Source: Candidatus Shapirobacteria bacterium (GTDB taxonomy: Bacteria; Patescibacteriota; Microgenomatia; UBA12405). From it: a stretch of 64,000 nt of DNA. This document shows positions 22,632-51,991 of this stretch, in pieces. Under the pieces are notes generated by a model. That model ran no database searches. It saw only the letters and a program-made list of their open reading frames with translations, and was not told the origin of the DNA. Position 1 is the first letter of the stretch. Every line of letters starts with the position of its first letter. Position numbers and translations under genes: made by a program. The stretch spans positions 3,146 to 67,145 of the forward strand of contig JBAYIT010000003.1 in NCBI GenBank assembly GCA_041665485.1, in the 5' to 3' direction.

Positions 22632-24376
22632 AAAACATTGCCAAGATTATTAAGATTTCCCGTCCGCTTTATAAAATTCTCGCCTTTATTGTCTTTTTGA
22701 TTATTACCTCGGTTTGCCTTGAGCTGGCCGCTCCGCTGGTGTCCAAACTTATTGTTGATCAAATCGTTACCAATAAAAGTTCCTCCGATCTTATTCGTCT
22801 TGTCGTTCTCATGTTCGGTCTTAATTTTTTGGGCATTTCCATTTCTGCCATTTCCGAACGGCTAGGCGATCATTTTGCCGGTCAACAAAGAAGGCTATTA
22901 ACTGAAAAATTTTACCAAAAGGTCTTGTCCCTCCCCCAGTCTTACTTTGATTCCGAAATTTCTGGCAAAATCATCAATCAACTAAGCCGCGGTATTTTCA
23001 CTATTCAAGGGTTTACTAACGCCGCCACTAATTTTATCGTTCCCTCCTTTTTGCAAAGCATTTTAACTATTTTTCTTTTAGCCCGTTACAGCCTGCCTAT
23101 CGCTGGCCTAGTTTTTTGCCTTTTTCCCATTTATCTGGCTCTCTCTTATTATTCCTCTCTCAAATGGGGTCAGCATGAAGTTGGTAAAAACAAGCTTGAA
23201 GACGAGCTCCGTGGCCGGATTCAGGAAGTTGTTGCCAACATTAAAATTGTCAAAGGCTTTCTTACTCAAAATAGCGAATCCCATTTTGTTTCTCAAAAAC
23301 TTCTTCAAATCAACAAAATTTATGCCGTCCAAAGCTCTTCTTATCATTGGATTGATTTTCTAAGAAATGCCAGTCTGGTCATCGTTCTCTTAGGCATTAA
23401 CATCGTCGTCTATCAACAAACTTTTCGCGGAATTTTAACTATTGGTGAAATGGTTTTAATCATCCAGCTTGTTCTACAGGCTAGGCGGCCTCTTTTTGCT
23501 ATGTCCTTTATTCTTACTCAACTTCAAAACGCCGAAAGTGGCTCCAAAGAATTTTTCGACATTTTAGAGCTCCCCGATCGCGAATCCTACCAAGCCTCCT
23601 CCTCTCCAAAACTCACCAATCCAAATCTTGAATTCCGTCAAGTTTCCTTTAATTATCAAGATTCGGTCAATGTTTTAAACAAGGTCTCTTTTACTATTAA
23701 TTCCCAAGAAAAAATTGCTCTAGTCGGTCCCTCGGGGGCCGGTAAAACCACTATCACCAACTTAATTCTTAAACTTTATCAGCCCACCAGTGGCGAGATC
23801 TTCATGTCTGGTAAAAGCTACCAAAAACTAAGTTTCGCTCAAATTAGGCAAAACATTGCCCTAGTTTTTCAAGAAAACGAATTATTTTCCAGTACTATTA
23901 AAGCCAATGTTGCCTATGGCACTAAAGCCACTGATGCCGAAATTATCTCCGCCCTCAAATCTGCCAATGCCTATGACTTTGTTAAAAAGTTACCCAATGG
24001 TTTAAATTCCCAGGTTGGCGAGAGGGGAGTCAAGCTCTCCGGTGGCCAAAAACAGCGCATCCAAATTGCCAGGGCCATTCTTAAAAACGCCCCCATTTTA
24101 ATTCTTGATGAGGCCACCAGTAGCCTCGACGCCAAATCAGAAGCCGAGGTTCAGGAGGCCTTGGAAAAGTTAATGGCCAAAAAGCTCGTCATTATTATTG
24201 CCCACCGTTTTTCCACCTTAAGCCATGTAGATAAAGTTATGGTTCTTGATGGCGGCCAAATCGTCCAGTCCGGCACTCCCAAAGAATTAGCCAAGATTAA
24301 GGGTATTTATTCCGATCTCCTAAACTACCAAATCGAGGGCAACCGTCGCCTCCTCGAAGGTTTCGAATTATCCTAA
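22628..24376 (+). CDS. ABC transporter, fused permease/ATP-binding protein (type I exporter, MsbA-like)
   Basis: 582 aa with 6 TM segments, Walker A 'GPSGAGKTT', ABC signature 'LSGGQKQR' and Walker B 'ILILDEATS'. Confidence 0.85.
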   Translation: MKNIAKIIKISRPLYKILAFIVFLIITSVCLELAAPLVSKLIVDQIVTNKSSSDLIRLVVLMFGLNFLGISISAISERLGDHFAGQQRRLLTEKFYQKVLSLPQSYFDSEISGKIINQLSRGIFTIQGFTNAATNFIVPSFLQSILTIFLLARYSLPIAGLVFCLFPIYLALSYYSSLKWGQHEVGKNKLEDELRGRIQEVVANIKIVKGFLTQNSESHFVSQKLLQINKIYAVQSSSYHWIDFLRNASLVIVLLGINIVVYQQTFRGILTIGEMVLIIQLVLQARRPLFAMSFILTQLQNAESGSKEFFDILELPDRESYQASSSPKLTNPNLEFRQVSFNYQDSVNVLNKVSFTINSQEKIALVGPSGAGKTTITNLILKLYQPTSGEIFMSGKSYQKLSFAQIRQNIALVFQENELFSSTIKANVAYGTKATDAEIISALKSANAYDFVKKLPNGLNSQVGERGVKLSGGQKQRIQIARAILKNAPILILDEATSSLDAKSEAEVQEALEKLMAKKLVIIIAHRFSTLSHVDKVMVLDGGQIVQSGTPKELAKIKGIYSDLLNYQIEGNRRLLEGFELS

Positions 24377-24382
24377 CGCCCT

Positions 24383-24982
24383 TTATTTATCAATAACCAT
24401 CATCTCCTCGTTCCTAACAGTTTTTATTTCAGCTCCCTCTTCTCTTTTAAACTTTTCTAATTCATCATTTTGAGTCTCCTCATAATGTGGCCAGACTTCA
24501 AAGTCCACCACTCCTAATCCAGTTAAGTCTTTTAATTCTAGTTCGTTAATATCCCCAGTTTTGGCTATTCTAATTGATGGTGTTAGCACTATTGCCCCGG
24601 CGCTAAAGCCCGCCAACACCACTCCACCTTTTTGCCAAAGCTTTTCAATTGCTTTATCGAGGCCCGATAGTCGCAAATGATTTAGTAATCTAAAAGTATT
24701 TCCGCCAGTGATCATCACCACGTTAGCCGACAATAATTTCTCTCTTTCGACAGTTGCCTCTTCTCCTCGTTTTGAATTATCAATAAACACAAATTTAGCC
24801 CCACAACTTTTGGCAAAATCCTGCCAGATTGGTGTAAATTTAGCATTGGCCTCAACACTATCGCCCTCCGACGGTATATAGGCAAATATTTTCTCCGTTA
24901 AATATTCCGGGAATAAAACAGCTTTTAGTTTTTTAAAAATATCCGGCGATGGTTGGGAAAATAAAACTAACCTTTTTAGCAT
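24383..24982 (-). CDS. peptidase S51 (dipeptidase E/cyanophycinase-like) family protein
   Basis: 199 aa. 'VVMITGGNTFRLLNHL...LAGFSAGA' resembles the S51 catalytic region. Confidence 0.55.
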   Translation of the reverse strand: MLKRLVLFSQPSPDIFKKLKAVLFPEYLTEKIFAYIPSEGDSVEANAKFTPIWQDFAKSCGAKFVFIDNSKRGEEATVEREKLLSANVVMITGGNTFRLLNHLRLSGLDKAIEKLWQKGGVVLAGFSAGAIVLTPSIRIAKTGDINELELKDLTGLGVVDFEVWPHYEETQNDELEKFKREEGAEIKTVRNEEMMVIDK

Positions 24983-25002
24983 GAGTCAATTATACGACAA
25001 TT

Positions 25003-25512
25003 TTACACCACCAAATATTTTAGTAAAACCAATTTTACTGCCGTTTCTATAAAGGGGATTCTGTCCTTAATGATAATTCCAATATGTTGGCAAACTGGGT
25101 CTGGGTTTTCTGCCAAGTACTGTCGCACAAAATCTCCTAATTCTTTGTTTTTCTTTAAAATATTTTGATGAAATTTTGGTAGTAAAAGTTTGTGTGATCT
25201 AGCTAAAAATCTTTTTCCGTCTCTAGAAATTAATGCCGCCCAACACAACATTTCATAATCACTTTTACGATTTTTTTGATAGCCAACTTCGATTCCCAAC
25301 GAACAGTCTGCCTCGTTAAATTTTGCCAAAGCATTTTTAGCTCGATTAATCGCTCCTCGTTTAGTCTCTTTACTGCTTATCGGCTGGTTGGCTACTCCAC
25401 TTAACACTTCAAACGATTCTATTGTCGCCTTCACCCCCAGCTCTACCAACACCCCTTCCAAAACTGCTCTTTTTCTCTCCGACCCCGTCCCCAATGCAAT
25501 TTTCATCATCAA
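25003..25512 (-). CDS. inosine/xanthosine triphosphatase (YjjX/DUF84 family)
   Basis: 169 aa. 'KIALGTGSERKRAVLEG...FEVLSGVANQPISSKETKRGAINRA' aligns with E. coli YjjX as I recall it. Confidence 0.6.
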   Translation of the reverse strand: MMMKIALGTGSERKRAVLEGVLVELGVKATIESFEVLSGVANQPISSKETKRGAINRAKNALAKFNEADCSLGIEVGYQKNRKSDYEMLCWAALISRDGKRFLARSHKLLLPKFHQNILKKNKELGDFVRQYLAENPDPVCQHIGIIIKDRIPFIETAVKLVLLKYLVV

Positions 25513-25515
25513 TAA

Positions 25516-26277
25516 TTACCCATCAATATTCTCTCTTTTCAGTAAATACCCGCCGTCGGCAGAAATTATTTGGCCGGTGATATAAGCAGAAGCATTACTT
25601 AAAAGAAAAACAATCACCTTGGCGATATCCTCCGGTTCGGCTAATCTTTTTAGCAACACGTTGTTTTCCATGAATTTTATCCCCGCCTTATCAAAATCAT
25701 CTAAAAGCATTTTTGTTTTTGTCCAGCCCGGTGCCACTCCGTTAACCCTAATATTTGGGGCATATTGTACTGCTAAATTTTCCGTTAGTTTTGCCAATCC
25801 TGCCTTAGCCACTCCGTAGCTACTAATCGACGGCTTGGCCGTTCCCGGCACTCCCCAAAGAGATACCACGTTTACGACTACCCCCGATTTTTGTTTTTCC
25901 ATCAGAGGCATTACATAACGGCACAAATGAACCGCCCCCATAATGTCTAAATCAAAAGATTTTTGCCACTCACTATCAGGATCGGTAATCGTTGCCCATC
26001 CACCCCCGCCGGCATTATTGACCAGTCCGTCAATTCGGCCGTATTTTTTAACGATTAAATCAACCATTATTTTTACCTCGCCATCTTTAGTCACATCAGC
26101 AAGTTGAAAATCAGAATTAGGAACTCCTGCCGAAGCCGATTTTAACTCTTCCTCTGATTTGGCCGAACTCAAAATGACTTTAGCCCCCAGTGATGACAAG
26201 GTCTTTGCCGTCGCCAATCCAATTCCTCGAGACGACCCGGTCACTAAAATTACCTTATCTTTTAAGTCTTCAAGCAT
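25516..26277 (-). CDS. SDR-family oxidoreductase (FabG-like)
   Basis: 253 aa with 'VTGSSRGIGLATAK' Rossmann and 'YGVAKAG' catalytic motifs. Confidence 0.8.
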   Translation of the reverse strand: MLEDLKDKVILVTGSSRGIGLATAKTLSSLGAKVILSSAKSEEELKSASAGVPNSDFQLADVTKDGEVKIMVDLIVKKYGRIDGLVNNAGGGGWATITDPDSEWQKSFDLDIMGAVHLCRYVMPLMEKQKSGVVVNVVSLWGVPGTAKPSISSYGVAKAGLAKLTENLAVQYAPNIRVNGVAPGWTKTKMLLDDFDKAGIKFMENNVLLKRLAEPEDIAKVIVFLLSNASAYITGQIISADGGYLLKRENIDG

Positions 26278-26283
26278 AGTTAA

Positions 26284-27369
26284 TTATACAAGATTTTTAA
26301 CCACTCTTTTTCCCACCTCCATCCCCGGCAGTTCAACTAGTCGATAAGTCACCGAAGAAATAATAATGCTAATAATAAATAACAAAAAATACCGAATAGA
26401 AAAATTTAGTAATGGCAAATTTACAAAATCCACTAGATTTAAAGTAGTCATTAATTTCAACACCGCAAAGTGGCTAATATAGAGGCTGAAACTTATTTTG
26501 CCAATAAAAACAGTAGATTTATTTACTACTAATTTAGTCGGATGCAAAGACAGTAGATATACCCCAACCCCCATCAAAACGGCAAAAATAAACTGGTAGG
26601 GGAAAATGGTTTTGGTAATTAATTGCATAAATACTGCCACTAAAAATAATTGCCCAAAAATCACATCAGAAGCCGATAATTTAATCTTAGAAACTTTGGT
26701 CTTTATTAGTTGGTAAACCGTAAATCCCACTCCGAAAACCGATAGTTGTGATGGTAAAAAGTAATTAAGATAATCAAGCCCTGTCCTTGATGACCCCAGC
26801 GGTGTCAGTTTAATTAAAAAGTAATAAATTACTTGAAAAAGTATTGCCGTCAAAACGGCAAATAGCCAGGTTATTTTCAGATTTTTAAGTGCAAAAAACA
26901 GCAGTGGGAAAAATACATAAAAGCCCATTTCGGTAGCAATCGACCATCCTCCCGGCACCAGCACATTAATCCATTCCGGTCTCAACCCATGAGTAAAAGT
27001 AAGGGTCGAAAGTATCGTTCCCCAATTAACCGGCGAACTCACTCCCAAAATCAGTCTGTCTTGGGATCCAAAATAAAAGTAATAAAAAATGGAGGCCAAG
27101 TAGAATAGGGGAGCAATTCGAAAAAACCTCCGGATATAAAAATTCAAAATCGGCCGCTTTTCATCTTGCTTTCTTTTTTCAAAAGACAAACACAGTGTCA
27201 GAGCGCTGATAATAAAAAATAGTTGCACCCCCAATGTCCCGTGATTTAATAACTCTTTTACTGCCGGCGAATAGTTATTAGTTCCAAATAGCTGGCAATG
27301 TGTTGCCATCACCATCATTATCGCCACCCCCCGCAGGGCATCTATATACCGATAATTTTTCACCTCCAT
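26284..27369 (-). CDS. acyltransferase family 3 (membrane O-acyltransferase)
   Basis: 361-aa polytopic protein. The N-terminal 'RYIDALRGVAIMMVMATHC' is typical of the acyltransferase_3 family. Confidence 0.7.
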   Translation of the reverse strand: MEVKNYRYIDALRGVAIMMVMATHCQLFGTNNYSPAVKELLNHGTLGVQLFFIISALTLCLSFEKRKQDEKRPILNFYIRRFFRIAPLFYLASIFYYFYFGSQDRLILGVSSPVNWGTILSTLTFTHGLRPEWINVLVPGGWSIATEMGFYVFFPLLFFALKNLKITWLFAVLTAILFQVIYYFLIKLTPLGSSRTGLDYLNYFLPSQLSVFGVGFTVYQLIKTKVSKIKLSASDVIFGQLFLVAVFMQLITKTIFPYQFIFAVLMGVGVYLLSLHPTKLVVNKSTVFIGKISFSLYISHFAVLKLMTTLNLVDFVNLPLLNFSIRYFLLFIISIIISSVTYRLVELPGMEVGKRVVKNLV

Positions 27370-27408
27370 CTTTAGCAGTTTACCAAAAAGTTAATTTATA
27401 ATTACTCA

Positions 27409-28749
27409 ATGGAGTTTATAAAAAAATATAAGATTACACTTCTATTGGCGGTTGTTTTAGCCATAGTCCTTTGCTTTTTTACTTTTCCCTTTAAAAACAA
27501 AAGTTATATTTTTGATTGGGATCAAGCCAATGACTATGAAGCCGTTGCTAAAATCGCCGCTGGCAAATTTACTCTAATTGGTCCTCGGGTTACTAGTGAC
27601 AACGGCTTTTTCCTCGGTCCATGGCATTATTATTTCCTCATACCATTTTTTGTTATCACTCACGGGAGTTTAGATATGGGCTTTTTTGCCGTTCTTCTTG
27701 TCCAATACCTATTTGTTATTACCTCGTTTATTTTGGTCAAAAAATGGTTTGGAACCCTTGCTGCTCTTACTGTTGGTGTCTTTTTCGCCACCCAGGCGAA
27801 TATTGTTGCCTGGGGGTTTATGTATGTCCCTCTACTAAGCCTACTTTTCTTTTCTTTCTGTCTTAAAACTATCAAAAATCCCAAATTTTTACCCCTCTTG
27901 TTTTTACTTTTTGGCTTTGGTTGCACCACCTATGCCGTCTTTTATGCTCTAATTTTTCCCTTAACTTATATTTCACTCTCTTTATTAATTCAGCAAAAAA
28001 CCACCTGGAAACAATTTTTTTTGGGAGCTATTTTGGCAACAGTTCCCTATACTCCTCTTTTAATCTTCGACCTTCGGCACAATTTTTTAAATATCAAAAA
28101 CATGCTTGGATTTGCTGGCGGCCAAGCCGGTTCCGGCGCTCAAGCCGGTTATTTTACCAAAGTATTTTTTAGAGCCCTTGAAGTCTCTTGGTTAAATCAA
28201 GAATTTGCCCCCTATCTGTCTTTTATTATCGTAATTCTAACTTTAGTCATTTTAATCGTCGGGGCTCTAGTTCTTTTCAAAAAAAACAAACTTTTTATCT
28301 TTATCTGGCTTCTGTCTTCACTAATTCCTCTAGCCTTTTTTAAAGGCAATGTTTCCGAATATTATTACGCCCCAGTAATCCTTCTCACCCCTATTTTTCT
28401 TTCTGGTTTTTTAGTTAAAAAAGGCAAAATCGGCCAAACACTTTTGGTTGCATTAATACTTTTACTAGTTGGTCTACGGTTAAAAGATAAATATTTCAGT
28501 CCATCAGGCGTCGTTTTAACCGACAAAATTGCCGTTGTTAAGGAATTAGAAAAGTTAAATACCAAATATTCTATTTCCTACGAATTAGGTTTGGGTCAGA
28601 ATAGTGGTTACGATACTATTTTCAAAACAATTGGCAAAAATTATGTTGCCGACGGCTCGTCGCCGCTTTACACCATCACTTACCCCAATACTCCCATCAG
28701 TGGCACCCTCCTCGTCACTACTGGGAAATTATCAATTTACAAAAGATGA
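27409..28749 (+). CDS. polytopic membrane protein, GT-C (ArnT/PMT-like) glycosyltransferase-like
   Basis: 446 aa with about 11 TM helices and an acidic first loop (FDWDQANDYE). Confidence 0.4.
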   Translation: MEFIKKYKITLLLAVVLAIVLCFFTFPFKNKSYIFDWDQANDYEAVAKIAAGKFTLIGPRVTSDNGFFLGPWHYYFLIPFFVITHGSLDMGFFAVLLVQYLFVITSFILVKKWFGTLAALTVGVFFATQANIVAWGFMYVPLLSLLFFSFCLKTIKNPKFLPLLFLLFGFGCTTYAVFYALIFPLTYISLSLLIQQKTTWKQFFLGAILATVPYTPLLIFDLRHNFLNIKNMLGFAGGQAGSGAQAGYFTKVFFRALEVSWLNQEFAPYLSFIIVILTLVILIVGALVLFKKNKLFIFIWLLSSLIPLAFFKGNVSEYYYAPVILLTPIFLSGFLVKKGKIGQTLLVALILLLVGLRLKDKYFSPSGVVLTDKIAVVKELEKLNTKYSISYELGLGQNSGYDTIFKTIGKNYVADGSSPLYTITYPNTPISGTLLVTTGKLSIYKR

Positions 28750-28830
28750 ATAAAACACTCCTGTCCAAATTATGTCCGTTACACTACCTCTTCCTAAGGG
28801 CATCTATATATCGATAATTTTTTAGCTCCA

Positions 28831-29529
28831 TTATTTAATTTTTATTAGTTTTGCCTTCTCATCCAAAAATGGATAAATCAAAAAACAGACAATTCCGCAC
28901 AGAAAATAAAATACATAATCTTCAATGGGAACACTTAATATTTTTGTCCCCATCAAGTTTTCCGTCATCCAAGTATTTTCAATGAATCCAGGAGACACGA
29001 AAATCATTAGTTGAAAAATAGGGACAACCAGAAGGACTAACAAAATAGCGTTAACAAAGGCTGCTTTTATTAAAGATTTATTAAAAAACATTATGACTGT
29101 CGAAAAAATCAACCCAAAAATAATGGTTGCCAGAAAAGAAGAAATGTTTACTATATAGACAAGGATAAAACACAACATAAGACAGACACTAATTAACACA
29201 ATCAAAAACGTTAATCTTTTATTTGATATCGAATCCGTTGTCTTCAATTTATTTTTGAAAACGTAAAAATATAAACTAGCCGCCACCCCTCCGCTACTAA
29301 ATCCCAAAAGGATGTCTTCTATTCCAATTCTGGTATTAGTGATTGTATAAGGGCGCCACCAGTCTCTGGTCCAAAAAAAATATTCCATAATTAAACCGAT
29401 TACTGAAAGTAACAAACCATTGAATACCATCAGTCTTCGCAGATCTTTTCTTCCAGAAAAAATCAAAAACCAGGGAATAAAAAATAAACTGGAACCAAAC
29501 AAATAAACAAACCGTAGAGGAAACATCAT
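28831..29529 (-). CDS. lycopene-cyclase-domain-like membrane protein
   Basis: 232 aa and polytopic. Two 'IEDILLGF'/'PIEDYVFYF' motifs recall the CrtYcd-type lycopene cyclase domain. Confidence 0.35.
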   Translation of the reverse strand: MMFPLRFVYLFGSSLFFIPWFLIFSGRKDLRRLMVFNGLLLSVIGLIMEYFFWTRDWWRPYTITNTRIGIEDILLGFSSGGVAASLYFYVFKNKLKTTDSISNKRLTFLIVLISVCLMLCFILVYIVNISSFLATIIFGLIFSTVIMFFNKSLIKAAFVNAILLVLLVVPIFQLMIFVSPGFIENTWMTENLMGTKILSVPIEDYVFYFLCGIVCFLIYPFLDEKAKLIKIK

Positions 29530-29555
29530 CCAAATTATATCAAGCTGGTGAATTT

Positions 29556-30428
29556 TTACTTTCTAATCTTCAGTTCCGATACTAGGGTTGCTCCCAAAAT
29601 TAAACTGCCACCAATAACGGTATTCATTGTCATTGATTCATTGGCCAGCCACCAGGCAAACAAAGAAGCAAATACCGGCTCGAGTGATGTAATAATCCCC
29701 ACTTGGTTAGCCGACACCGACCGTTGGGCGTTTAGTTGCAAAAACAAGGAAATTGATGCTGGGAAAATGGCCAAATAAAGAATTGGCAACCAGACCAAAT
29801 TACTTTTGGGCCACATCGGCGCTCCGGACATTATCCCGATAATAAAACAAACCAAGCCCATTACCCACATCTGGTGAAAACATAACACCAATGGATCATG
29901 TTTACCTCTTAAAAATTTTTCTGCCAACACGTTATATAAACCAATAAATAGTGGCACCAACAGAGTAATAAAATCGCCCCTCTTCATCTGATCCACACCT
30001 CCGGTTAGCGCCCAAAGTCCAATCATTGCCATTGTCAGAGCCAGTAGAAATTTTCTTGATGGTACTTTTCTAAAAATCAGTAAACTGAAAATTGGCGTCG
30101 TAATCACAAATAGTCCGGTAATAAAACTGGAGTTTGACGAGGAAATACTCTGAATTCCTATAGTTTGACTAAGATAGGCGAAGGCGTAGACAAACCCCAG
30201 TATTATTCCCGCCTTAATACTTCCTTTGAAATCTTTTTTCAAAAGCCAAACAACTACTCCCATTAATAGTGCCGCCAGTAAAAAACGGTAAGCCACTAAA
30301 AACGGTGGACTAATCAGGGCCGTTGCTTGTTTAACAATAAAAAAACTCGAGCCCCAAATTACCGTTGCCAAAAGTAGTTGTGCTGTTGGTGAAAACAACT
30401 TACGAATTAAACCGTTTTTATTTGTCAT
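29556..30428 (-). CDS. EamA/DMT-family transporter
   Basis: 290 aa with 10 TM helices and two EamA-like halves. Confidence 0.7.
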   Translation of the reverse strand: MTNKNGLIRKLFSPTAQLLLATVIWGSSFFIVKQATALISPPFLVAYRFLLAALLMGVVVWLLKKDFKGSIKAGIILGFVYAFAYLSQTIGIQSISSSNSSFITGLFVITTPIFSLLIFRKVPSRKFLLALTMAMIGLWALTGGVDQMKRGDFITLLVPLFIGLYNVLAEKFLRGKHDPLVLCFHQMWVMGLVCFIIGIMSGAPMWPKSNLVWLPILYLAIFPASISLFLQLNAQRSVSANQVGIITSLEPVFASLFAWWLANESMTMNTVIGGSLILGATLVSELKIRK

Positions 30429-30880
30429 TGTTCTTTACAATCTCCAGCACTGGTTTGTAATGGAATTTTACTTGAATAAATTCTCCCAGTTTTATTTTCA
30501 GCATCGGAAACATTGGCTGATCAATAGCGCTCACATCCCAATTTACCTCTGGATATTTTTGCGCCAGTGTTTCGAAATCTTCGTCAATGACAAATTCTGC
30601 ATGTTCCAGTGCCGACGGGCAAACTTGCCCCTGCTTTGGTGCCACCAATTCAACCGCCGGTATCAAATTATTTTGAAATCGCCACTCTTCTCCCGCCAAT
30701 CGGTTTTTCAAAAACCATCTTCCCGATTTTTTCAAAACCCAATTTTAGTTTCTCGTAATCCTCATCCGACGACGCTTGATAGCCCAAGTGATCCAATTGG
30801 TATTTTGCTACATCAATTCCCAGTCCTTCAACTTTCTCAATCAGGTCGTCCAAAAATAATTGGTAATTATCAAAAATCAT
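30418..30880 (-). pseudogene. VOC/YecM-like metalloenzyme gene, frameshifted
   Basis: Two overlapping minus-strand ORFs (30668..30880 and 30418..30735) together encode one VOC-like protein ('DHLGYQASSDEDYEKL' ... 'IPAVELVAP'). The frame switches within atggtttttgaaaaacc (about 30690-30720). Confidence 0.5.
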
Positions 30881-30983
30881 TTTTATTTGATTTTGTTGTT
30901 TTTTATTTGTATAATTCTCCTGTAAGCGATAAGGCTTACTTGACTTTATTCAGAATCCCGGCGAAAGTCGGGATTTTTGATTT

Positions 30984-31586
30984 TTATTGCCTTCTAAGGT
31001 TTAGTCTATACTCGAAGTCTTCCGCAAATAATATATCTTTAATCACCTTGCTTTTCTTGCAGTCTACTAATTCTTTGCCAAGATGGTTTCTGGCTCCAAA
31101 GACATAAATTGTTTTCCCAAATTCCTTTTTAATATATTCGCAAACATAGGCTAGGTCGCCGTCTCCGGAAAAAATTATGGCGGTGTCGTAATTATCTTTT
31201 TCTTTAATTAAGTCAACCGCCATCTCGATATCTAAATTACATTTTTTAATAAACCCTGTTTCATATTTTTCGTCTGGAATATATTTGACTCTTTTAGAAA
31301 CAATTTCAAATCCGCTATATTGGGCCTGCCTCAATATTTTTTCAGACCACGGAGTTAATATTTTTGATCTGTCTTTTGGGCCATAGTCTTCTCCATAATA
31401 AAATCTTCTCAAAAACTTTTTACCCTTAGCAATATAGGAGACTAATTGTCCTAGATTTTTTATACCAACTGGCCAGTTTAAAGTATCCTGCCAGCGATCA
31501 ACATTGGCAAAATCGACAATCACAATATTCCTATCGATAGTTTTCGAGAGTAGTTCTAAAAACTTTTTAATATCGTTTTTGTCCAT
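30984..31586 (-). CDS. NYN-domain (LabA-like) putative RNase
   Basis: 200 aa with 'IVIVDFANV' and 'IIFSGDGDLAYV' motifs of the NYN/PIN-like fold. Low GC and AGA/GGA-rich codon usage. Confidence 0.6.
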   Translation of the reverse strand: MDKNDIKKFLELLSKTIDRNIVIVDFANVDRWQDTLNWPVGIKNLGQLVSYIAKGKKFLRRFYYGEDYGPKDRSKILTPWSEKILRQAQYSGFEIVSKRVKYIPDEKYETGFIKKCNLDIEMAVDLIKEKDNYDTAIIFSGDGDLAYVCEYIKKEFGKTIYVFGARNHLGKELVDCKKSKVIKDILFAEDFEYRLNLRRQ

Positions 31587-31649
31587 ACATTCTTTTTCTT
31601 ACCTAACTTGTCGGGTTTATCCGACATAGTCCGGCCACTGCCGGACGAA

Positions 31650-31714
31650 GTCGGGGATACTGGATTCGCTGCGTCCGGCCCAGACGGAAACCAGCAACCT
31701 CGCGCACCCTAGCC
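31650..31714 (-). pseudogene. degenerate tRNA-Pro fragment (T-arm with 20-nt insertion + acceptor 3' strand)
   Basis: rc reads GGCTAGGGTGCGCGAGGTTGCTGG-TT-[TCCGTCTGGGCCGGACGCAG]-CGAATCCAGTATCCCCGAC. It shares an exact 19-nt direct repeat (gtcggggatactggattcg, 31650-31668 and 31769-31787) with the intact tRNA. The 5' acceptor strand and anticodon arm are missing. Confidence 0.55.
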
Positions 31715-31769
31715 AAAAAACAATCCGTCACACAGTCAACTGTTAACGGTTTACTGTTAACGGTAATTG

Positions 31770-31843
31770 TCGGGGATACTGGATTCGAACCAGCAACCTC
31801 ACGGACCCCATCCGCGCGCGCTAGCCAATTGCGCCAATCCCCG
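31770..31843 (-). tRNA. tRNA-Pro (anticodon GGG)
   Basis: 74 nt folded by hand. Acceptor CGGGGAT/ATCCCCG, D-stem GCGC/GCGC, anticodon stem CGCGG/CCGTG with loop AT-GGG-GT, T-arm GCTGG-TTCGAAT-CCAGT, discriminator A. CCA is not encoded. Confidence 0.8.
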
Positions 31844-31856
31844 ATATTTAGCGCTG

Positions 31857-31904
31857 TCTGCCGACAGGCAGACTTTGCGCCAACTGTGTCCGCCCACTGG
31901 CGGA
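31857..31904. repeat. GC-rich palindromic hairpins upstream of tRNA-Pro (TCTGCC-GACA-GGCAGA; TCCGCC-CACT-GGCGGA)
   Basis: Perfect 6-bp stems. The CACT-loop hairpin recurs at 31629-31646 (GTCCGGC-CACT-GCCGGAC) and at 51909-51924 (CCCGCC-CACT-GGCGGG). Confidence 0.6.
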
Positions 31905-32065
31905 TCCCCGAAATGAGACTAATTATAAAAAGAGCGGCGCACTAGCCAACTGTGCCCGCCGAAGCGAAGCATAGGAGGGTTGCGCCAAAGCCTCTGTATT
32001 ATACCCGATTCTCCCTGTTTCTGTTTTTTAGAAATTGGAAATTTTAGATTTGGAAATTGTAGATT

Positions 32066-32722
32066 TTAAGGAGGGCATCTTTCCGACTTCACATACCCCG
32101 CCTTAATTGCCTCATTTTCACTACAAAACCACTCCTCCCCTCGATCCAGCTCCACTATTGTCGTCTCATATTGCACACATCCTGGCACATAAAATCGCTT
32201 TAAACGACTGTTACTCGGGTCAATATTGCCCTTAATATTGCACTTTTGGTTTTGCCTATTTTCTCTTTGCCAGCATTTGCCATACAATCCCTTATTATCT
32301 GCCTTATTCTTGTCGCCAACTTCTTTAAGTTTTTCCGCCACACTCGTCTGATCATGATGATACTTAACCCAACCACTTTTAATCATCTCCAAGTTTATTA
32401 ACTTGTCACCTGCGTACAATAACCCCATTGGCCGCCCCCAATTATCAAGAATTTCTTCCTCCACCCTCACTCTTTTGTTAGTTAGTAATTTTTCTAGCTC
32501 TGCTTTTGCCTCTTTCCCTCCGCAAAGATCAGCTTCAGCCGCATCAATACTTCTTAGTCTAAATCTGACTTTGCCCTCCAATGTCACCGTGTCCCCATCC
32601 AGCACTCCAATTACTTTAATCCCCTTGGCTTTTTCACTTTTCATATATTGATACCCCGTCCCCGCCATCACCGCCATCAAGCATATCGCCAGCATCCCCC
32701 CAATCACTTTTTTCTTTCTCAT
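32066..32722 (-). CDS. thermonuclease (SNase/micrococcal-nuclease-like), membrane-anchored, with Cys-containing C-terminal extension
   Basis: 218 aa with an N-terminal TM. 'VIGVLDGDTVTLEGKVRFRLRSIDAAE' is an SNase motif. The C-terminal 'KGNID...FYVPGC...WFCSENEAIKAGY' is an extra domain. Confidence 0.7.
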   Translation of the reverse strand: MRKKKVIGGMLAICLMAVMAGTGYQYMKSEKAKGIKVIGVLDGDTVTLEGKVRFRLRSIDAAEADLCGGKEAKAELEKLLTNKRVRVEEEILDNWGRPMGLLYAGDKLINLEMIKSGWVKYHHDQTSVAEKLKEVGDKNKADNKGLYGKCWQRENRQNQKCNIKGNIDPSNSRLKRFYVPGCVQYETTIVELDRGEEWFCSENEAIKAGYVKSERCPP

Positions 32723-32785
32723 TATAAAATTCTATCACCGCAAGCCATTACTCCAGAAAAGGCTCGAACTTTGATAAAATAGACC

Positions 32786-33715
32786 ATGCTTTTCGTTACC
32801 TCTTACAGTGATCCTGATTTAGACTGTATTGCTTGTATTTTAGGTTATACTGAATATCTAGCCAAAATTGGAATAGACTCTACGGGAGTTTACTCTGGAG
32901 AATTAAACCTAGAAGTAGATTTCGTCAAAAAATACACCAATTTTTTTCCACTTGAAAAGCATTTAGGTGAATTCAACGATACTGATGAATTTATTTTAGT
33001 TGATAGTTCTGATCCAATACGGATCGATCCAAGAATAAAAATTGAAAATATCGTTGAATTGTTTGACCATCGACTTACTGAACAAGTTACAAAGTTAAAA
33101 AATGCAAAAGTTCACATTGACCTCGTCGGTTCTTGCTCTACCTTAATCACTGAAGAATATATAAAAAGTAATTTAGTTCCATCAAAAAACGTTGCTATTT
33201 ATCTCTACTCCGCCATAGTCTCCAATACCGTTAATTTCAAGAATTCTGTTACCACTTCCCGAGATATTGAAATCGCAAAACGGCTAAAAGAAGTTGCCGG
33301 CTTAAATGATAATTTTACAAAAGAGATGTTTTTAGCGAAATCAAACATCTCTGCAGACAATTTATATGAAGTACTACGCCAAGATTTTGCCATTAGACCC
33401 ATATCCGATAAAATGGTTGGAATTGCTCAAGTTGAGATGGTCGACATTGGCCGAATGTCAACAGAACTTAATCAAGTATTATTGGAGTCACTGAACCGTT
33501 TTTATAACGACAATAAACTCGATTATATATTTTTTAATGGAATCGACGTTATTGAAGGCTATAACATATTTTATACAATTGATGAGGCTTCCAAAAAATT
33601 ATTTTCTCAGGTTTTAAATATCCCAGAATTAGTACCAAGACATAAAACAAACTCAATTATCATGAGAAAACAAATTTTTCATATGGTTGAGGAGTATTTT
33701 AAAAATCAAAATTAG
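32786..33715 (+). CDS. DHH-DHHA2 protein, family II inorganic pyrophosphatase (PpaC)-like with substituted motif residues
   Basis: 309 aa. 'DPDLDCIACILGY', 'ILVDSSD' (where PpaC has DHN), 'FDHR', 'VGSCSTLI' and the C-terminal DHHA2-like part align with PpaC as I recall it. Low GC. Confidence 0.55.
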   Translation: MLFVTSYSDPDLDCIACILGYTEYLAKIGIDSTGVYSGELNLEVDFVKKYTNFFPLEKHLGEFNDTDEFILVDSSDPIRIDPRIKIENIVELFDHRLTEQVTKLKNAKVHIDLVGSCSTLITEEYIKSNLVPSKNVAIYLYSAIVSNTVNFKNSVTTSRDIEIAKRLKEVAGLNDNFTKEMFLAKSNISADNLYEVLRQDFAIRPISDKMVGIAQVEMVDIGRMSTELNQVLLESLNRFYNDNKLDYIFFNGIDVIEGYNIFYTIDEASKKLFSQVLNIPELVPRHKTNSIIMRKQIFHMVEEYFKNQN

Positions 33716-33777
33716 TTCTAAAATCATCCCGACTTAAAGCCCGGCAAATCGGTAAGTGTTACACTAAAAAAGATAGA

Positions 33778-34335
33778 ATGAAACTGGCAACAAAAAGGTT
33801 AATTCTTAGAGACTGGGACGAAAAAGACATCGATGATTTGGTCGAAGGTTTAAATAATTTAGAAGTTTCAAAATGGCTGGCCAAGGCTCCCTATCCCTAT
33901 ACAAAAAAAGATGCCAGAAACTGGATAAAGTATTGCCGCGAGAACGACAAGAAAGGCAAAAAAAGGAATGCCTATTATTTTGCTATCGAACTAAAATCAG
34001 AAAAAAAAGTTATCGGCGGAGTCGGTCTTGAGAAGATAGACAGATTTCAAGGCACAGCCGGCGGAGGTATTTGGTTAAATGCGAAGTATCATGGCCATGG
34101 ATATGGCACTGAGGCTTTCGCTGAAAGAATAAGATTTGCCTTTGATAAATTAAAATTAAGAAGGATCGAGAACGGTTATTTTAAAGGCAATCAGTCTTCG
34201 TTCAAAATGCAAGAAAAACTTGGCTACAAACTTGAAGGCATAAAAAGAAAAGCCTGTAAATGTCTGGCGGATGGAAAAATTAAAGATGAGTACATCACCG
34301 GGCTTTTAAAAGAAGAGTGGAAAAATAAGGCCTAA
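33778..34335 (+). CDS. GNAT-family N-acetyltransferase (RimJ/RimL-like)
   Basis: 185 aa. 'LILRDWDEKDIDDL...' with a GNAT core 'IGGVGLEKIDRFQGTAGGGIWLNAKYHGHGYGTEA'. Confidence 0.7.
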   Translation: MKLATKRLILRDWDEKDIDDLVEGLNNLEVSKWLAKAPYPYTKKDARNWIKYCRENDKKGKKRNAYYFAIELKSEKKVIGGVGLEKIDRFQGTAGGGIWLNAKYHGHGYGTEAFAERIRFAFDKLKLRRIENGYFKGNQSSFKMQEKLGYKLEGIKRKACKCLADGKIKDEYITGLLKEEWKNKA

Positions 34336-34359
34336 CAATAATTCCCTATCCGATAAATT

Positions 34360-34878
34360 GTGGATTACGACCAAGCAACCTTACAAAAATTTGCTCAGGA
34401 AATAATGGTCATGGTTAAACACGACCAGGAAATGAGACAAAAATTTCATACAAATAAAGATTGGGATTCAAAAGTTGACCCCGCCAACACTGTCAGACTA
34501 AAAGAAATAATCGAGACCATTGGTTGGCCGTCGATTTCTAAAGTCGGCTCCGATGTTTCGTTTGGTGCTTGGCTCTTGGTCCAACACGCTGATTTCGATT
34601 TGGATTTTCAAAAAAGTTGTTTAAAACTAATGAAAAGTTTACCTAAAAACGAATGTCATCAATCAAACATGGCCTACCTTACAGACAGAATAAAAGTCAA
34701 TAGCGGCAAAAGTCAAACTTATGGTACCCAGTTTTATACCAATAAACAAGGTAAATTTACCCACCGACCCATCAAAGACCGCAAAAACCTAGACAAGCGT
34801 CGACTGTCAATGGGCTTGGAGCCTTTTGCTGAATACTCTCGATTAATGGACAATCTGGCCAAGCCCTCACCACGATGA
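34360..34878 (+). CDS. hypothetical protein (172 aa)
   Basis: GTG-initiated ORF with no family recognised. Immediately upstream of the 807-aa ORF. Confidence 0.4.
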   Translation: MDYDQATLQKFAQEIMVMVKHDQEMRQKFHTNKDWDSKVDPANTVRLKEIIETIGWPSISKVGSDVSFGAWLLVQHADFDLDFQKSCLKLMKSLPKNECHQSNMAYLTDRIKVNSGKSQTYGTQFYTNKQGKFTHRPIKDRKNLDKRRLSMGLEPFAEYSRLMDNLAKPSPR

Positions 34879-34915
34879 TACACTTGTGAGACATTATAAT
34901 GTTATGTTTTAATTT

Positions 34916-37339
34916 ATGGCGAGAGGTTTAAGTGGTGTTGAAGACCTAAAAGTGTTTCGCATGGAACCTGCCGACTTTAATGACGAAAGTTTACGCTTTC
35001 ATTGGCAAATCGATATTAAACCAACCGGAGATCATTGGCTACTTGCCCGAGAAAGAACCTGGGAGGAAGTTGACGAAGTTTTAGAAGGACGCCTTCAATC
35101 CATCCAAAAATCATTTATTGAAATCGACGGCGATCATCCGCCGGATCAAATAGCTCTGGCTTATGGTATTGATAGACCTATTGGCAACAATCTCTCCCGA
35201 GTTTTAGCTTATTCCGAAATGATCGACGAGTATCGAGTGGTTGTTGCCAGCAATCAACGAAGAGTCCAAAAGAAAAGGCAAGACTATGAGGCTCACAAAG
35301 CCTCTCTTGATGAAGATTTGGTACAAAAAAGAATTAGTTATGCTCAACATCGTCTACAACTTCAAGAGTTTTGGAATCAAGATCAAGGAATTGTTGCAAC
35401 TGAATGTACCCCAAAAATCAAACAAGCAAACAAGATGCAACAGTTAATATATAGAAAAGCTGTAATGGACTTCTTTTCCCTATCAACAGACGAGGCCTCA
35501 AAAACTCCTCTTGTTGTTGAAAACATAGCCAAACTCTATGGCGAAGCCATATTTATTGGAGATCCTACCGCCCATGGTCAAATTAAAAAGCGCGAGCCAG
35601 TCTCTACCTTTTTTACTGGTTTAACTGATTATTTAGCCACCACCACCGACAAATCACTCCTTAGACATTACACATACCGTCATTCTCCAAACATTATTAA
35701 CAGGGAAGAAGATTGCGCCGTTTTAAACCCAGCATTAATAATGGCTTTAGGGGATGACCACCCCCTGGCAGATGTCGCGCCTGGGTACCACCTTCTTGGT
35801 CAAGCCTATTATAAGTTTCTCGTTTCGCAAGCAGTCTTTATCTCGGGATCCAAAGGCTTCGAGGGCTATCCTATTATTGCTCTTATTTATGACTCTCTTA
35901 CTACTGCGGTTTTTTCCGATGATATTGCCGTGATGAGAAGTGTTGCTGGATTAATCGACACCAACCTTCAGCCCTATGCAAGAGGAGACCGTTGTTGTGC
36001 TGAAGTTAGGGCACTAGGTAAACGAACGGCGAAAAGAAAACTATTACTCAGAGATCAAGAAGTAGATACGCCACCCTCTGGGTATGACCCCATTCACCCA
36101 AATGAAAATATTAAAGCCTACATAACAGATGACGAAATTACCTTGTCCACCGCCATTAAATTTTATAACTTATTAATCAGTAGGTATCGTGAACTTTTAC
36201 CACTTAAGACTTCTCGTTTTGTTGAGGCTTTAATTGCAGATATTAAATCGGCAGAAAAATCCGCCTCTGATTCAGCTCATAAATTGGCAGGAGAACCGAC
36301 AGACACAGGATATGCGCTAATGCAGGCTTATGACACTGTTTATCAACAAGTTCTCATCAGTGGTTATTTCAGAAGAGTAAGTTCATCTAGGAATTTAATC
36401 GACGGTCTGTTGTCACTCAACCGAGGTTTACTTTTTCCCGTTGAAGCCGATCCACAATCCACGCGAGTCTTAAGCACTTTTATGGGTAAATTAAACATCG
36501 AACATGGTGCGCTTGTTGCCAAAGCAGAAAAACTAGAAATTCTAAAATCAATCCAAGAAAAAAGAGCTCTTTGCCAAGAGCAGGACCAACCACTTTACGA
36601 CAATGAAATTATTAAATTATATTTAAATTGTTTTTTTGCTGAAACAGTCGAAAGTTTAATCGAGACCAAAAAAGAAAACGACTCTTTACGGCGGGAAGTA
36701 ATCGACAATTCGGTTTGGTTTGTTTCTCCTAGGGGTGATCGTTTTTCAGTTAGAAACGATCCGGAACTTACTGACTATGGGGTTGCTTCTATAACTTTCA
36801 CCATCGACAAAACCTGTCCCCGTGAGTACCAAGTTTTTCTCCAAGTCGAAGGGCTGTCTGACCCCCTGGTATTTTGGTTAGATAAAAATGGTGAGGTTGT
36901 GGGTAGGTCGCATGAACCGCTAGTTTGTGATGTTGGTTTTAAAGAACGTCTAGAGAATCTCCTCCTCAAGCGTTTATACACTATAACATCCGGTATTCTT
37001 GCCGAGGAAGAAGATCCCGAACCGGGGACAGCCGGAGGACCTAGTTTCAGCTATACTCGTGCCCATTATGATCTTCTTGTGTCAACACCGGGCAGAAGAA
37101 TTACCATGGAATCTCATGGGGCCGAAACTCACGCTAGAGAAATTAAGGAAGAATATGGTATCGATATTTTTGAAGAAATTCGTCGTCGTCGGGCCCGAGG
37201 CACATTGGAGCAAAACCAATTTATAACTTTTTCCCGAGAGCATATTCCCGATGTGGTTCAACACCCCCTTCTTCCCAATGAATTGATATACGACCCATCT
37301 CAGGTCAAAATACAACTGTCTCGATCCACGAACCAATAG
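34916..37339 (+). CDS. large hypothetical protein (807 aa), no recognisable domain
   Basis: Long uninterrupted ORF predicted cytoplasmic, with no TM segment, P-loop, HEPN or nuclease motif I can identify. GC is higher (about 45%) than the flanking low-GC genes. Confidence 0.6.
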   Translation: MARGLSGVEDLKVFRMEPADFNDESLRFHWQIDIKPTGDHWLLARERTWEEVDEVLEGRLQSIQKSFIEIDGDHPPDQIALAYGIDRPIGNNLSRVLAYSEMIDEYRVVVASNQRRVQKKRQDYEAHKASLDEDLVQKRISYAQHRLQLQEFWNQDQGIVATECTPKIKQANKMQQLIYRKAVMDFFSLSTDEASKTPLVVENIAKLYGEAIFIGDPTAHGQIKKREPVSTFFTGLTDYLATTTDKSLLRHYTYRHSPNIINREEDCAVLNPALIMALGDDHPLADVAPGYHLLGQAYYKFLVSQAVFISGSKGFEGYPIIALIYDSLTTAVFSDDIAVMRSVAGLIDTNLQPYARGDRCCAEVRALGKRTAKRKLLLRDQEVDTPPSGYDPIHPNENIKAYITDDEITLSTAIKFYNLLISRYRELLPLKTSRFVEALIADIKSAEKSASDSAHKLAGEPTDTGYALMQAYDTVYQQVLISGYFRRVSSSRNLIDGLLSLNRGLLFPVEADPQSTRVLSTFMGKLNIEHGALVAKAEKLEILKSIQEKRALCQEQDQPLYDNEIIKLYLNCFFAETVESLIETKKENDSLRREVIDNSVWFVSPRGDRFSVRNDPELTDYGVASITFTIDKTCPREYQVFLQVEGLSDPLVFWLDKNGEVVGRSHEPLVCDVGFKERLENLLLKRLYTITSGILAEEEDPEPGTAGGPSFSYTRAHYDLLVSTPGRRITMESHGAETHAREIKEEYGIDIFEEIRRRRARGTLEQNQFITFSREHIPDVVQHPLLPNELIYDPSQVKIQLSRSTNQ

Positions 37340-37401
37340 TCTAAATAGTCTAAGTTTTAAACTCTCTTCACTTCTAAAATTCTATATGAGAGACTATTTA
37401 T

Positions 37402-37995
37402 ATGAAACTACCCAGTTTTTTCACCACTGTCACCCCGCTATCAAAGTATCTGGCCATGTTACTTTTTGTCTCACTGCCATTTATTGGCTTTATACTGGGC
37501 GTTAATTATCAAAAAACAACCGCCATTCCGCCATCAATTACTCTCCCCATTCCAACTCCTAGAATCGAAACCAATCTGCCAACCAAGAGTATTTCCGTTT
37601 CCGATTTTCTTCTTGAAATACCATCGTCTTGGCAATATATTGGCCTTAATCAATATGGCCAAGCCTCAATTATTACTGCCACTACCCCCTATCAAATTAC
37701 CCTTAAACTCAACATTGTTAAAACCGACCTGGACCGCGTCATGAAGGGCGGCAAAGAACTTGGTAAAACAATTGACGGTGGTTTAATTTATGAAGAAGTT
37801 GGTATTGGCGGAGCCAGACTTACTCCCTATATTGTCGTTTACCCCAACGGCGATATTTACAACTTTCAATGGGATTATTCTAGTACCCAACCCGGGTCAC
37901 AAAATCCCGATGGTATCGAACTTCCAGCGACTAACTTTACCCAGGAAGACTTACTATCTATCGTAAAATCTGCGACTACGACAATTTTGAATTAA
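37402..37995 (+). CDS. secreted/membrane-anchored hypothetical protein (197 aa)
   Basis: N-terminal signal-anchor 'YLAMLLFVSLPFIGFILGV'. No known family. Confidence 0.5.
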   Translation: MKLPSFFTTVTPLSKYLAMLLFVSLPFIGFILGVNYQKTTAIPPSITLPIPTPRIETNLPTKSISVSDFLLEIPSSWQYIGLNQYGQASIITATTPYQITLKLNIVKTDLDRVMKGGKELGKTIDGGLIYEEVGIGGARLTPYIVVYPNGDIYNFQWDYSSTQPGSQNPDGIELPATNFTQEDLLSIVKSATTTILN

Positions 37996-42336: not shown

Positions 42337-42361
42337 TTGAATTAAAAATTAAAAATTAAAA

Positions 42362-51871: not shown

Positions 51872-51991
51872 CTCCCTATTTTACCCCATCTACGTCAATT
51901 GCGCCGCGCCCGCCCACTGGCGGGAGGAACGAAGCGACGAAGCAATCTCGTTGGAATTACTGCCAAATAGCCGTATAACGTATAATTAGTT

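Follow-up and report, generated by a model that had tools for sequence, protein, structure and literature searches.

Hairpin-split partial copies of a tRNA-Pro gene in a Shapirobacteria genome as possible scars of a mini GIY-YIG cassette

Transfer RNA genes are the classic landing pads for integrase-borne islands. In fungal mitochondria, free-standing GIY-YIG and LAGLIDADG open reading frames (ORFs) duplicate part of their host gene, Allomyces atp6 being the classic case, and GC-rich "double-hairpin elements" accompany mobile ORFs in an AT-rich genome. Phage T4 carries the gene of the GIY-YIG nuclease SegB in its tRNA gene cluster; SegB cleaves the tRNA region of genomes without the gene, and this cleavage promotes its own inheritance together with that of flanking DNA (PMC2988022, PMC13096335). 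Small stand-alone prokaryotic GIY-YIG proteins are classed as Slx1-like, Slx1 being a structure-specific nuclease, and prokaryotic Slx1 homologues are typically without auxiliary domains (PMC1564403). Here the analysis concerned the tRNA-Pro(GGG) gene in a 64,000-nucleotide (nt) stretch of a Candidatus Shapirobacteria genome (contig JBAYIT010000003.1), hereafter the window, which was compared with loci of other genomes and contigs (numbered L003-L063). The gene is surrounded by partial copies of itself that are split by GC-rich inserts, and the reading favoured below, at about even chances, is that these copies are ORF-less scars of a mini (80-90 amino acids, aa) stand-alone GIY-YIG, homing-endonuclease-like cassette that would target tRNA genes, by analogy with related loci at which the ORF is present. 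The literature searched yielded no description of a bacterial or Candidate Phyla Radiation (CPR) element in which a tRNA, a mini GIY-YIG gene and hairpins occur together.

The tRNA-Pro(GGG) reported on the minus strand in a preliminary description of this stretch was recovered by both ARAGORN and Rfam and is the only tRNA in the window. The 420 nt around it contain three partial self-copies, A and B upstream and C downstream (sequence, blastn-short and k-mer map; Table 1), each interrupted by GC-rich inserts of ~20-30 nt that usually form a hairpin; the insert sites are tRNA positions 7/8, 15/16 (D loop), 56/57 (T loop) and after position 75. Copy C had been noticed before as a degenerate 3' half sharing a perfect 19-nt repeat with the gene. 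The copy is real and so is the repeat (GTCGGGGATACTGGATTCG, at 31650-31668 and 31769-31787, with no third copy in the window), but copy C was under-described, as it comprises tRNA positions 16-27 and 45-75 with an insert, and copies A and B were missed. Its order is positions 16-22, GGGT, 23-27 and 45-56 (31689-31716), then the 20-nt insert TCCGTCTGGGCCGGACGCAG in the T loop (31669-31688), which can form an imperfect hairpin, then positions 57-75 (31650-31668); exactly the anticodon arm is missing, and the minimum-free-energy structure shows the inserted hairpin enclosed by the T stem. A two-tier hairpin abuts the 3' end of copy C, with an inner stem GTCCGGC-CACT-GCCGGAC (31629-31646) and an outer stem in which the CCGAC of copy C pairs with GTCGG; the junction GCCGGACGAAG/TCGGGGAT (31640-31658) is similar to the junction GGCGGACGAAG/CGGGGAT of the related locus L045. 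The tandem repeat seen earlier in the DNA between tRNA and copy C is the 12-nt ACTGTTAACGGT, present at 31739-31750 and 31753-31764. This 52-nt spacer may be the residue of a lost cassette, and at the orthologous position L049 has a 270-nt GIY-YIG ORF.

Copy A is located just after a promoter-like TATAAT box belonging to GGTATAATA, a motif that in L046 precedes tRNA-Pro itself by ~12 nt and in L048 and L045 precedes the first partial copy. This box, predicted from its consensus match, is probably the ancestral tRNA promoter. Another promoter-like site, TTGGCT-16 nt-TATAAT (31922-31949), likewise a consensus match alone, is partly made of copy A.

The tRNA fragments of the window are far beyond chance. 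Eight-mers of the tRNA cover 26 nt of the upstream and 40 nt of the downstream flank, values reached by shuffled flanks in 1 of 5000 and 0 of 5000 trials, respectively; among 758 control segments of the window, one equals the upstream coverage and none the downstream coverage. Three of the nine perfect GC-rich hairpins detected by a hairpin scan of the window fall in this 300-nt stretch. The partial copies were not scored as tRNA by ARAGORN, and the intact tRNA was the sole Rfam match at E<=1 in 31500-32100. Since three independent assemblies (JGI, ENA and Logan) agree at every base of the 490-nt tRNA region, the arrangement is no assembly artefact. Archaeal-type and group I introns, split or permuted tRNAs and transfer-messenger RNA were considered and rejected, given a bacterial organism (its RNase P RNA is of class A), the absence of whole arms and the lack of any Rfam or ARAGORN score; a CRISPR-like array was dismissed on the sizes of repeats and spacers.

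The ORF missing from the window is found beside tRNA genes elsewhere. At three loci (tRNA-Pro, tRNA-Asn and tRNA-Lys), an 80-90-aa GIY-YIG ORF lies exactly between an intact tRNA and its split copy. In L049, an 89-aa ORF with a GIY-YIG catalytic domain (Pfam E=3e-15) begins 2 nt after tRNA-Pro, and 3 nt past its stop stands TGGTTCGAATC[TCCGCCAAAGGCGGACAGG]CAGTATCCCCGAC (here and below, square brackets enclose inserts). At the tRNA-Asn locus of L024, positions 1-11, a 39-nt GC insert and positions 12-21 precede a 79-aa GIY-YIG ORF and the intact tRNA. The third arrangement, seen in L052-L061, was retrieved by GIY-YIG homology alone and consists of tRNA-Lys positions 1-12, a double hairpin (TCGTCCATAGGACGA, TCAGCCTATGGCTGA), the GIY-YIG ORF and an intact tRNA-Lys abutting the ORF stop. 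The same architecture thus recurs in association with the same kind of ORF, and the catalytic residues Y16, G18, R27, H31, N32 and E63 are invariant in 14 homologues. The window, L045 and L049 have hairpins of the form TCCGCC-N3-4-GGCGGA next to partial copies, and L053 has them near tRNA-Lys; the ORF-less double hairpin of L045 is ~87% identical to that of the L053 cassette, with two compensatory pair changes.

Homology to the GIY-YIG proteins alone led to three independent loci, two of them beside tRNAs called by ARAGORN and one with a tRNA-like repeat. On an IMG/VR contig retrieved in this way the ORF lies ~77 nt upstream of tRNA-Lys(TTT). On a GC-rich IMG/VR contig (L063, 1130-1520), the mini GIY-YIG ORF lies between perfect 40-nt direct repeats of a tRNA-like 3' end that terminates in CCA; the hairpin TCCGCCTCAGGCGGA precedes the second copy, and ARAGORN called no tRNA. 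This locus suggests that the cassette type is not confined to CPR bacteria. Searches of a phage collection and of viral sequences with the GIY-YIG proteins returned one unannotated weak match and classical large phage homing endonucleases and were uninformative. Side by side, L052 and L053 (2830-3150) also showed that variants of the tRNA-Lys locus diverge directly 3' of tRNA-Lys(CTT), one continuing into a thiamine pyrophosphokinase gene and the other into ~300 nt of hairpin-rich DNA with a 227-aa ORF, followed on the longer L056 and L058 by an AbiEii gene. Next to a GIY-YIG cassette, the 3' end of a tRNA is here polymorphic between strains.

Split copies of tRNA-Pro also occur in relatives of the window. 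Upstream of the gene, L045 has a 5' piece CGGGGATTGGCGTAAT, a double hairpin (TTCGTCCAGAGGACGA, CCGGCCTATGGCCGG) and GGCTAG, and 12 nt downstream it has CTGCTGGTT[TCCGCCACAGGCGGA...]TCCAGTATCCCCGAC; in L046 the tRNA is followed by ACAGG[34 nt with hairpin]AATCCTGTATCTCCGAC. The closest relative, L048 (its SNase, encoded beside tRNA-Pro in the window, is 86% identical), has the conserved GGTATAAT box and then CGGGGATTGGCGCAA[31-nt insert]TTGGCTAGCGCG, an element ~93% identical to copy A of the window within intergenic DNA that otherwise does not align; this homologue of copy A retains the full 5' acceptor strand. Across the tRNA-Pro locus, the series thus runs from ORF plus fragment (L049) through fragments alone (window, L045, L046) to no convincing fragment (L051, where a 10-mer after a 125-aa ORF was judged possibly due to chance and left out of the count), so that the GIY-YIG cassette shows presence/absence polymorphism at the same site among relatives. 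In the window, L045, L046 and L049, the partial copy is identical to the genome's own tRNA variant, despite differences between these tRNAs in the T stem (GCTGG/CCAGT versus GCAGG/CCTGT), at position 48 (T versus C) and in the acceptor (CCCCG versus CTCCG). Because an old inherited scar would have diverged, this match points to recent independent events, or else to gene conversion or selection. Two short-read contigs end inside the repeats, L003 (position 1, starting at tRNA position 49) and L048 (position 1065, in the interrupted 5' copy); tRNA-Pro repeats evidently fragment assemblies at this locus.

Under the favoured reading, the nuclease would cut a tRNA gene within or close to the D arm in the 5'-side type and the T arm in the 3'-side type. 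Repair would insert the cassette and, with it, a new copy of the neighbouring tRNA segment, so that the tRNA would remain functional while the original segment would be pushed aside and persist as a partial copy. GC-rich palindromic hairpins in or beside this displaced copy, of the types TCCGCC-N3-4-GGCGGA and TCGTCC-N3-GGACGA, may then cut it into pieces too short for recombination with the live gene or for renewed recognition; later the nuclease ORF would be lost and the hairpin-split fragments would remain. Homing in this order would imply at least two events on the 5' side (copies A and B) and one on the 3' side (copy C) in the window. Copy A may represent the remains of the original 5' end, because the GGTATAATA box that precedes it sits 12 nt from the tRNA in L046. 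Break and repair near the tRNA could also account for the hypervariable DNA 3' of tRNA-Pro. Given the structure specificity of Slx1, the nuclease could conceivably recognise tRNA-gene DNA or hairpins by their structure.

Several points weigh against this scheme. The window itself has neither a GIY-YIG ORF nor a remnant recognisable by tblastn and is linked to the cassettes by analogy with relatives, so that it is a scar at most and not a member of the cassette family. The loci are a handful, and two of the three clearest examples were noticed through their adjoining tRNAs; the GIY-YIG ORF of L047, between RecA and SNase, has no tRNA in its vicinity. The mini GIY-YIG proteins are without a DNA-binding domain and belong with the Slx1-like stand-alone group, for which homing is not demonstrated (PMC1564403), and the escape of the restored tRNA from renewed cleavage has no explanation. 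Two sites remote from tRNA genes, at 42.9 and 51.9 kb, also have hairpins of this type, which may be an independent mobile family.

This last point leads to an alternative in which hairpins akin to repetitive extragenic palindromes (REPs) or miniature inverted-repeat transposable elements (MITEs) form a mobile family of their own, inserting into the loops of tRNA-like DNA and surviving in non-functional duplicates alone; the duplicates would stem from slippage or illegitimate recombination, and the GIY-YIG ORFs would be another tenant of the hotspot. The two distant hairpins fit such a family. The one within the miaA frame is flanked by an 11-nt direct repeat and resembles a small palindromic element inserted in frame, and the one at 51.9 kb lies directly upstream of the CCA-adding enzyme gene (50519-51871), shares an exact 14-nt hairpin core (CCGCCAGTGGGCGG) and is preceded by GCTTCG-TC-GCTTCG and followed by the tRNA-Pro-like GGCGCAATTG (tRNA 9-18) and GATGGGGT (tRNA 32-39); an ectopic scar and a leader that mimics tRNA are both conceivable here. 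Some copies also carry CGTC/TGTC-like tags and short tails as in CGTC-type REPs (PMC3733652), and in L024 and L049 the hairpin sits inside the partial copy and not at the ORF boundary, which suggests a separate insertion step. Another Shapirobacteria genome has a RAYT-like gene with a faint Y1_Tnp match (L025 10934-11700, L026 3380-4145) and GTAG-tagged REP hairpins (GTAGAGACGCCAGG...) inside and beside it; a similar REP is present in L016 (4464-4504), and REP/RAYT systems thus appear to exist in CPR bacteria. The window, on the other hand, has no RAYT or Y1 transposase homologue and only ~6-7 related hairpins in 64 kb, most of them at the tRNA, and an independent hairpin family leaves unexplained why the ORF is packed exactly between partial copy and intact tRNA at three unrelated loci and why the D arm is where 5' duplicates stop and the T arm where 3' duplicates start. 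This alternative is judged unlikely.

Selection on a functional structured leader or trailer is less probable still. Fragments and hairpins would here be maintained in the tRNA-Pro precursor or in the leader of the NYN mRNA, with gene conversion keeping the match, and could act as processing signals, as decoys for RNase P, RNase Z or the CCA-adding enzyme, or as promoter or terminator modules. In the window, L045 and L046, tRNA-Pro is indeed followed by a T stem with expanded loop and acceptor strand, and the T stems show compensatory changes; copy A supplies the -35-like TTGGCT of a 10/12 promoter match, and the CCA-adding enzyme gene has a related element in its leader. Folding of the 421-nt region is stronger than that of shuffled sequences (z = -3.8), but GC-rich palindromes in an AT-rich genome by themselves lower the folding energy. 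The module is absent in L051, L046 and L049 have no 5' fragment, an ORF fills the spacer in L049, no Rfam match was obtained, and the positions, lengths and sequences of the inserts vary between genomes. The attachment-site (att) signature proposed in the preliminary description would mean that a tyrosine-integrase island entered the 3' half of tRNA-Pro and was then deleted or imprecisely excised, leaving attL/attR-like repeats. The perfect 19-nt repeat of the tRNA 3' end and the variable DNA 3' of the tRNA among relatives are what such an event could leave, and the T loop reportedly serves integrases as a classical crossover site (Williams 2002). Integrated elements are also a common source of partial tRNA genes (PMC9897764). 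Against this, no integrase lies at 22.6-38 kb (the earlier remark that none is present holds for ORFs of at least 110 aa over 22.6-42 kb, which gave no match to an integrase Pfam family), nor is there an integrase Pfam match in the called genes of the orthologous loci in L045, L046, L049 and L051. The copies stand ~100 nt apart and enclose no island; the 20-nt hairpin breaks the identity of the repeat, and 5' fragments lie upstream of the tRNA. The distal copy of the 19-mer that had been suggested as a target for searching is found neither elsewhere in the 64-kb window nor in 2.9 million viral contigs, and several genomes show the pattern independently, at distances of tens to a few hundred nt from the tRNA. 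The att reading is thus unsupported in mechanism, largely refuted and very improbable. From the earlier idea of a remnant of integration or excision there survive the variable DNA 3' of tRNA-Pro and a duplicated tRNA piece that is very probably the footprint of a mobile element, but not an integrase signature.

The surroundings of the tRNA were examined by synteny, for which SNase proved the informative anchor, with relatives L045, L046, L047, L049, L050 and L051 (SNase 62-72% identical). In all six, SNase divergently adjoins RecA, with one GIY-YIG ORF between them in L047, and tRNA-Pro(GGG) lies beside SNase in four (L045, L046, L049 and L051). On these grounds both SNase and tRNA-Pro(GGG) are, by gene order, ancestral conserved backbone in Shapirobacteria and not part of an island. 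The backbone of the relatives continues as RecA-(RecX)-RNase Y-HU and, where the locus extends far enough, reaches YchF (L045, L046) and MiaA (L045); the end of the ribosomal operon (S4-RpoA-L17-L13-S9) is found within 1.3-3.6 kb in L046, L049 and L051, and BacA in L046 and L049. Accessory DNA occupies two separate blocks. Block L encodes an ABC transporter, an S51 peptidase, an NTPase, an SDR, an acyltransferase, p446, a lycopene-cyclase-like protein, EamA, a split YecM and NYN; relatives have different and shorter content at its position, and every relative examined has its own content 3' of tRNA-Pro. At the position of block R, the gap between SNase and RecA is 137-223 nt in five relatives. 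The tRNA module is itself rearranged, as L046 (6750-6824) has tRNA-Pro and the partial copy trailing it in an orientation relative to SNase opposite to that shared by the window, L045, L049 and L051.

The preliminary description had treated 30418-34878 as a low-GC accessory island. Its gene calls were largely borne out by Pfam (NYN, SNase, DHH/DHHA2, GNAT), apart from the split "VOC" gene, which belongs to the YecM family, and the "hypothetical" gene, which is a DUF6624. The GC content is slightly low (38.6% versus a window mean of 41.0%), but this is weak, corresponding to the 14th percentile of windows of the same size, and other stretches of the window are equally low; within the interval, DHH (32.2%) and NYN (33.7%) are the only low genes, SNase having 43.4%. 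Arginine codons are indeed AGR-rich in NYN, GNAT and SNase, but also outside the interval. Composition does not mark 30418-34878 as an island. When presence in relatives was compared, it was blocks L (~22.6-31.6 kb) and R that varied and not this interval, which contains the conserved SNase and tRNA-Pro; the proposed island merges parts of two unrelated variable blocks with backbone, and the same genes in the same order, named beforehand as grounds for rejecting it, were found in relatives for tRNA-Pro and SNase alone.

Table 1. Coordinates of features in the 64,000-nt window.
Feature	Position	Strand	Details or evidence
Intact tRNA-Pro(GGG), CCA not encoded	31769..31843	-	ARAGORN; Rfam RF00005, 56.1 bits
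Copy A	31934..31988	-	TTGGCGCAA (tRNA 7-15), 30-nt insert (31950-31979), TTGGCTAGTGCGCCGC (~tRNA 16-31)
Copy B	31854..31910	-	CGGGGAT (tRNA 1-7), hairpin TCCGCC-AGTG-GGCGGA + CACAG, TTGGCGCAA (tRNA 7-15), hairpin GTCTGCC-TGTC-GGCAGAC
Copy C	31650..31716	-	Sequence, blastn-short, repeat families, k-mer map
Spacer, 52 nt, tRNA to copy C, with 12-nt tandem repeat	31717..31768	-	Sequence
Two-tier hairpin abutting copy C 3' end	31621..31654		Inverted repeat, hairpin scan, L045 sequence
TATAAT box of the GGTATAATA motif	31998..32003	-	Sequence comparison, promoter scan; consensus matches alone
SNase (thermonuclease family)	32066..32722	-	Pfam PF00565
Variable block L, BacA (21903-22631) to tRNA-Pro	22628..31586		Pfam; tblastn synteny versus L046, L049, L051
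Variable block R, SNase to RecA: DHH/DHHA2, GNAT, DUF6624, p807, p197	32786..37995	+	Pfam, relatives
Hairpin TCCGTC-TGA-GACGGA + CTTCG x3 inside miaA frame	42875..42929	-	Flanking 11-nt direct repeat ATTAGAAATTG (42875-42885, 42919-42929)
Distant hairpin copy CCCGCC-AGTG-GGCGGG (51909-51924)	51883..51943	-	blastn-short, hairpin scan

Other anchors and searches added little to the synteny. NYN homologues (46-80% identical) occur in 17 other CPR genomes with no neighbour in common with the window, and NYN was discarded as an anchor, as it left the island boundaries untouched; DHH was discarded as well, since even its 84%-identical homologue in L024, from a sister species, lies in an unrelated context with no common neighbour within 10 kb on either side. 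A metagenome scan for sister genomes anchored on p807 returned no relatives, and one for the hairpin with GGCGCAA gave 17 matches, all due to chance and in GC-rich genomes; the collection evidently does not hold this organism. NYN homologues were seen next to tRNA genes on several occasions: a tRNA-Pro(GGG) followed by a truncated NYN (residues 113-199) in L016 (3378-3803), a tRNA-Ser followed by an NYN fragment (residues 150-199) in L023 (5907-6148) and a tRNA-Ser just downstream of NYN in L011 (6001-6799). In L005 and L006, NYN starts directly after another ORF that may be the terminal part of a DNA-methylase-like gene. In its behaviour, NYN is a mobile accessory gene of hotspots next to tRNAs.

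Further features of the window were recorded in passing. A frameshift splits the YecM-family gene (30418-30880, minus strand) into ORFs of 70 and 105 aa; being common to all three independent assemblies, it reflects a real pseudogene or a programmed shift and not a sequencing error. The bacterial class A RNase P RNA (Rfam; 44391-44657, minus strand) is reduced, its 267 nt covering the full 367-position model. The miaA frame (42340-42570) opens directly after an (AAAAATT)n repeat and has no ATG, GTG or TTG ahead of the P-loop motif (LLIISGPTATGKT, ~42371), the first canonical start being 66 codons later at 42569, which suggests a non-canonical start or a damaged 5' end.

The feature in the window is a scar, of interest mainly for the element family behind it. 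A wider proposal, put forward tentatively and rather doubtful as a whole, is that mini Slx1-like GIY-YIG nucleases and GC-rich hairpins constitute an undescribed class of bacterial mobile cassettes in CPR and perhaps other groups. Such cassettes would recognise the D- and T-arm regions of different tRNA genes by DNA structure and not by sequence, and would duplicate part of the tRNA on insertion, turning tRNA flanks into integrase-free turnover hotspots for accessory genes such as NYN. In streamlined CPR genomes with few recognisable mobile elements, tRNA genes appear to be used by an agent other than an integrase-borne island and much smaller than one. If this is true, some of the widespread and poorly understood stand-alone GIY-YIG proteins would have a selfish, mobile role, and the integrase-free hypervariable regions next to tRNAs in Patescibacteria would be accounted for. 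Annotators would also be warned that short, hairpin-split tRNA fragments are not att sites and can break assemblies. For the window, the map is corrected to a backbone of SNase and tRNA-Pro with accessory DNA in two separate blocks.

Compared with described systems, the cassettes share with SegB the position of a GIY-YIG gene among or next to tRNA genes, but SegB is a phage protein of ~200 or more aa with a DNA-binding part, whereas the present proteins are predicted 80-90-aa catalytic domains encoded in bacterial chromosomes, and neither a partial duplication of the target tRNA nor GC hairpins are described for segB. The mobile ORFs of fungal mitochondria are similar in that a replacement for the end of the target gene is brought in and the original end persists downstream as a fragment; they differ in residing in an organelle and mostly in protein genes, while the present cases concern chromosomal tRNA genes with hairpins inside the displaced fragment. 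With tRNA-targeting integrative elements (PMC9897764), the locus has in common a direct repeat of a tRNA segment beside an intact tRNA and variable neighbouring DNA, but it has no integrase, encloses tens to hundreds of nt, includes both 5' and 3' fragments and shows repeats split by hairpins. The hairpins resemble REP/CGTC-tagged palindromes and Rickettsia palindromic elements as GC-rich palindromes of 15-40 nt with 4-5-nt loops and short tails that are dispersed, sometimes clustered and sometimes in-frame in genes (PMC3733652); unlike those, they have a very low copy number, a tight tie to tRNA fragments and GIY-YIG ORFs, no consistent tag and no RAYT in the window. The encoded proteins are likened to Slx1-like proteins of the YhbQ/COG2827 type by their minimal architecture and size and not by phylogeny, but that family is described as mostly vertically inherited and repair-related, with no link to tRNA genes or target duplication (PMC1564403).

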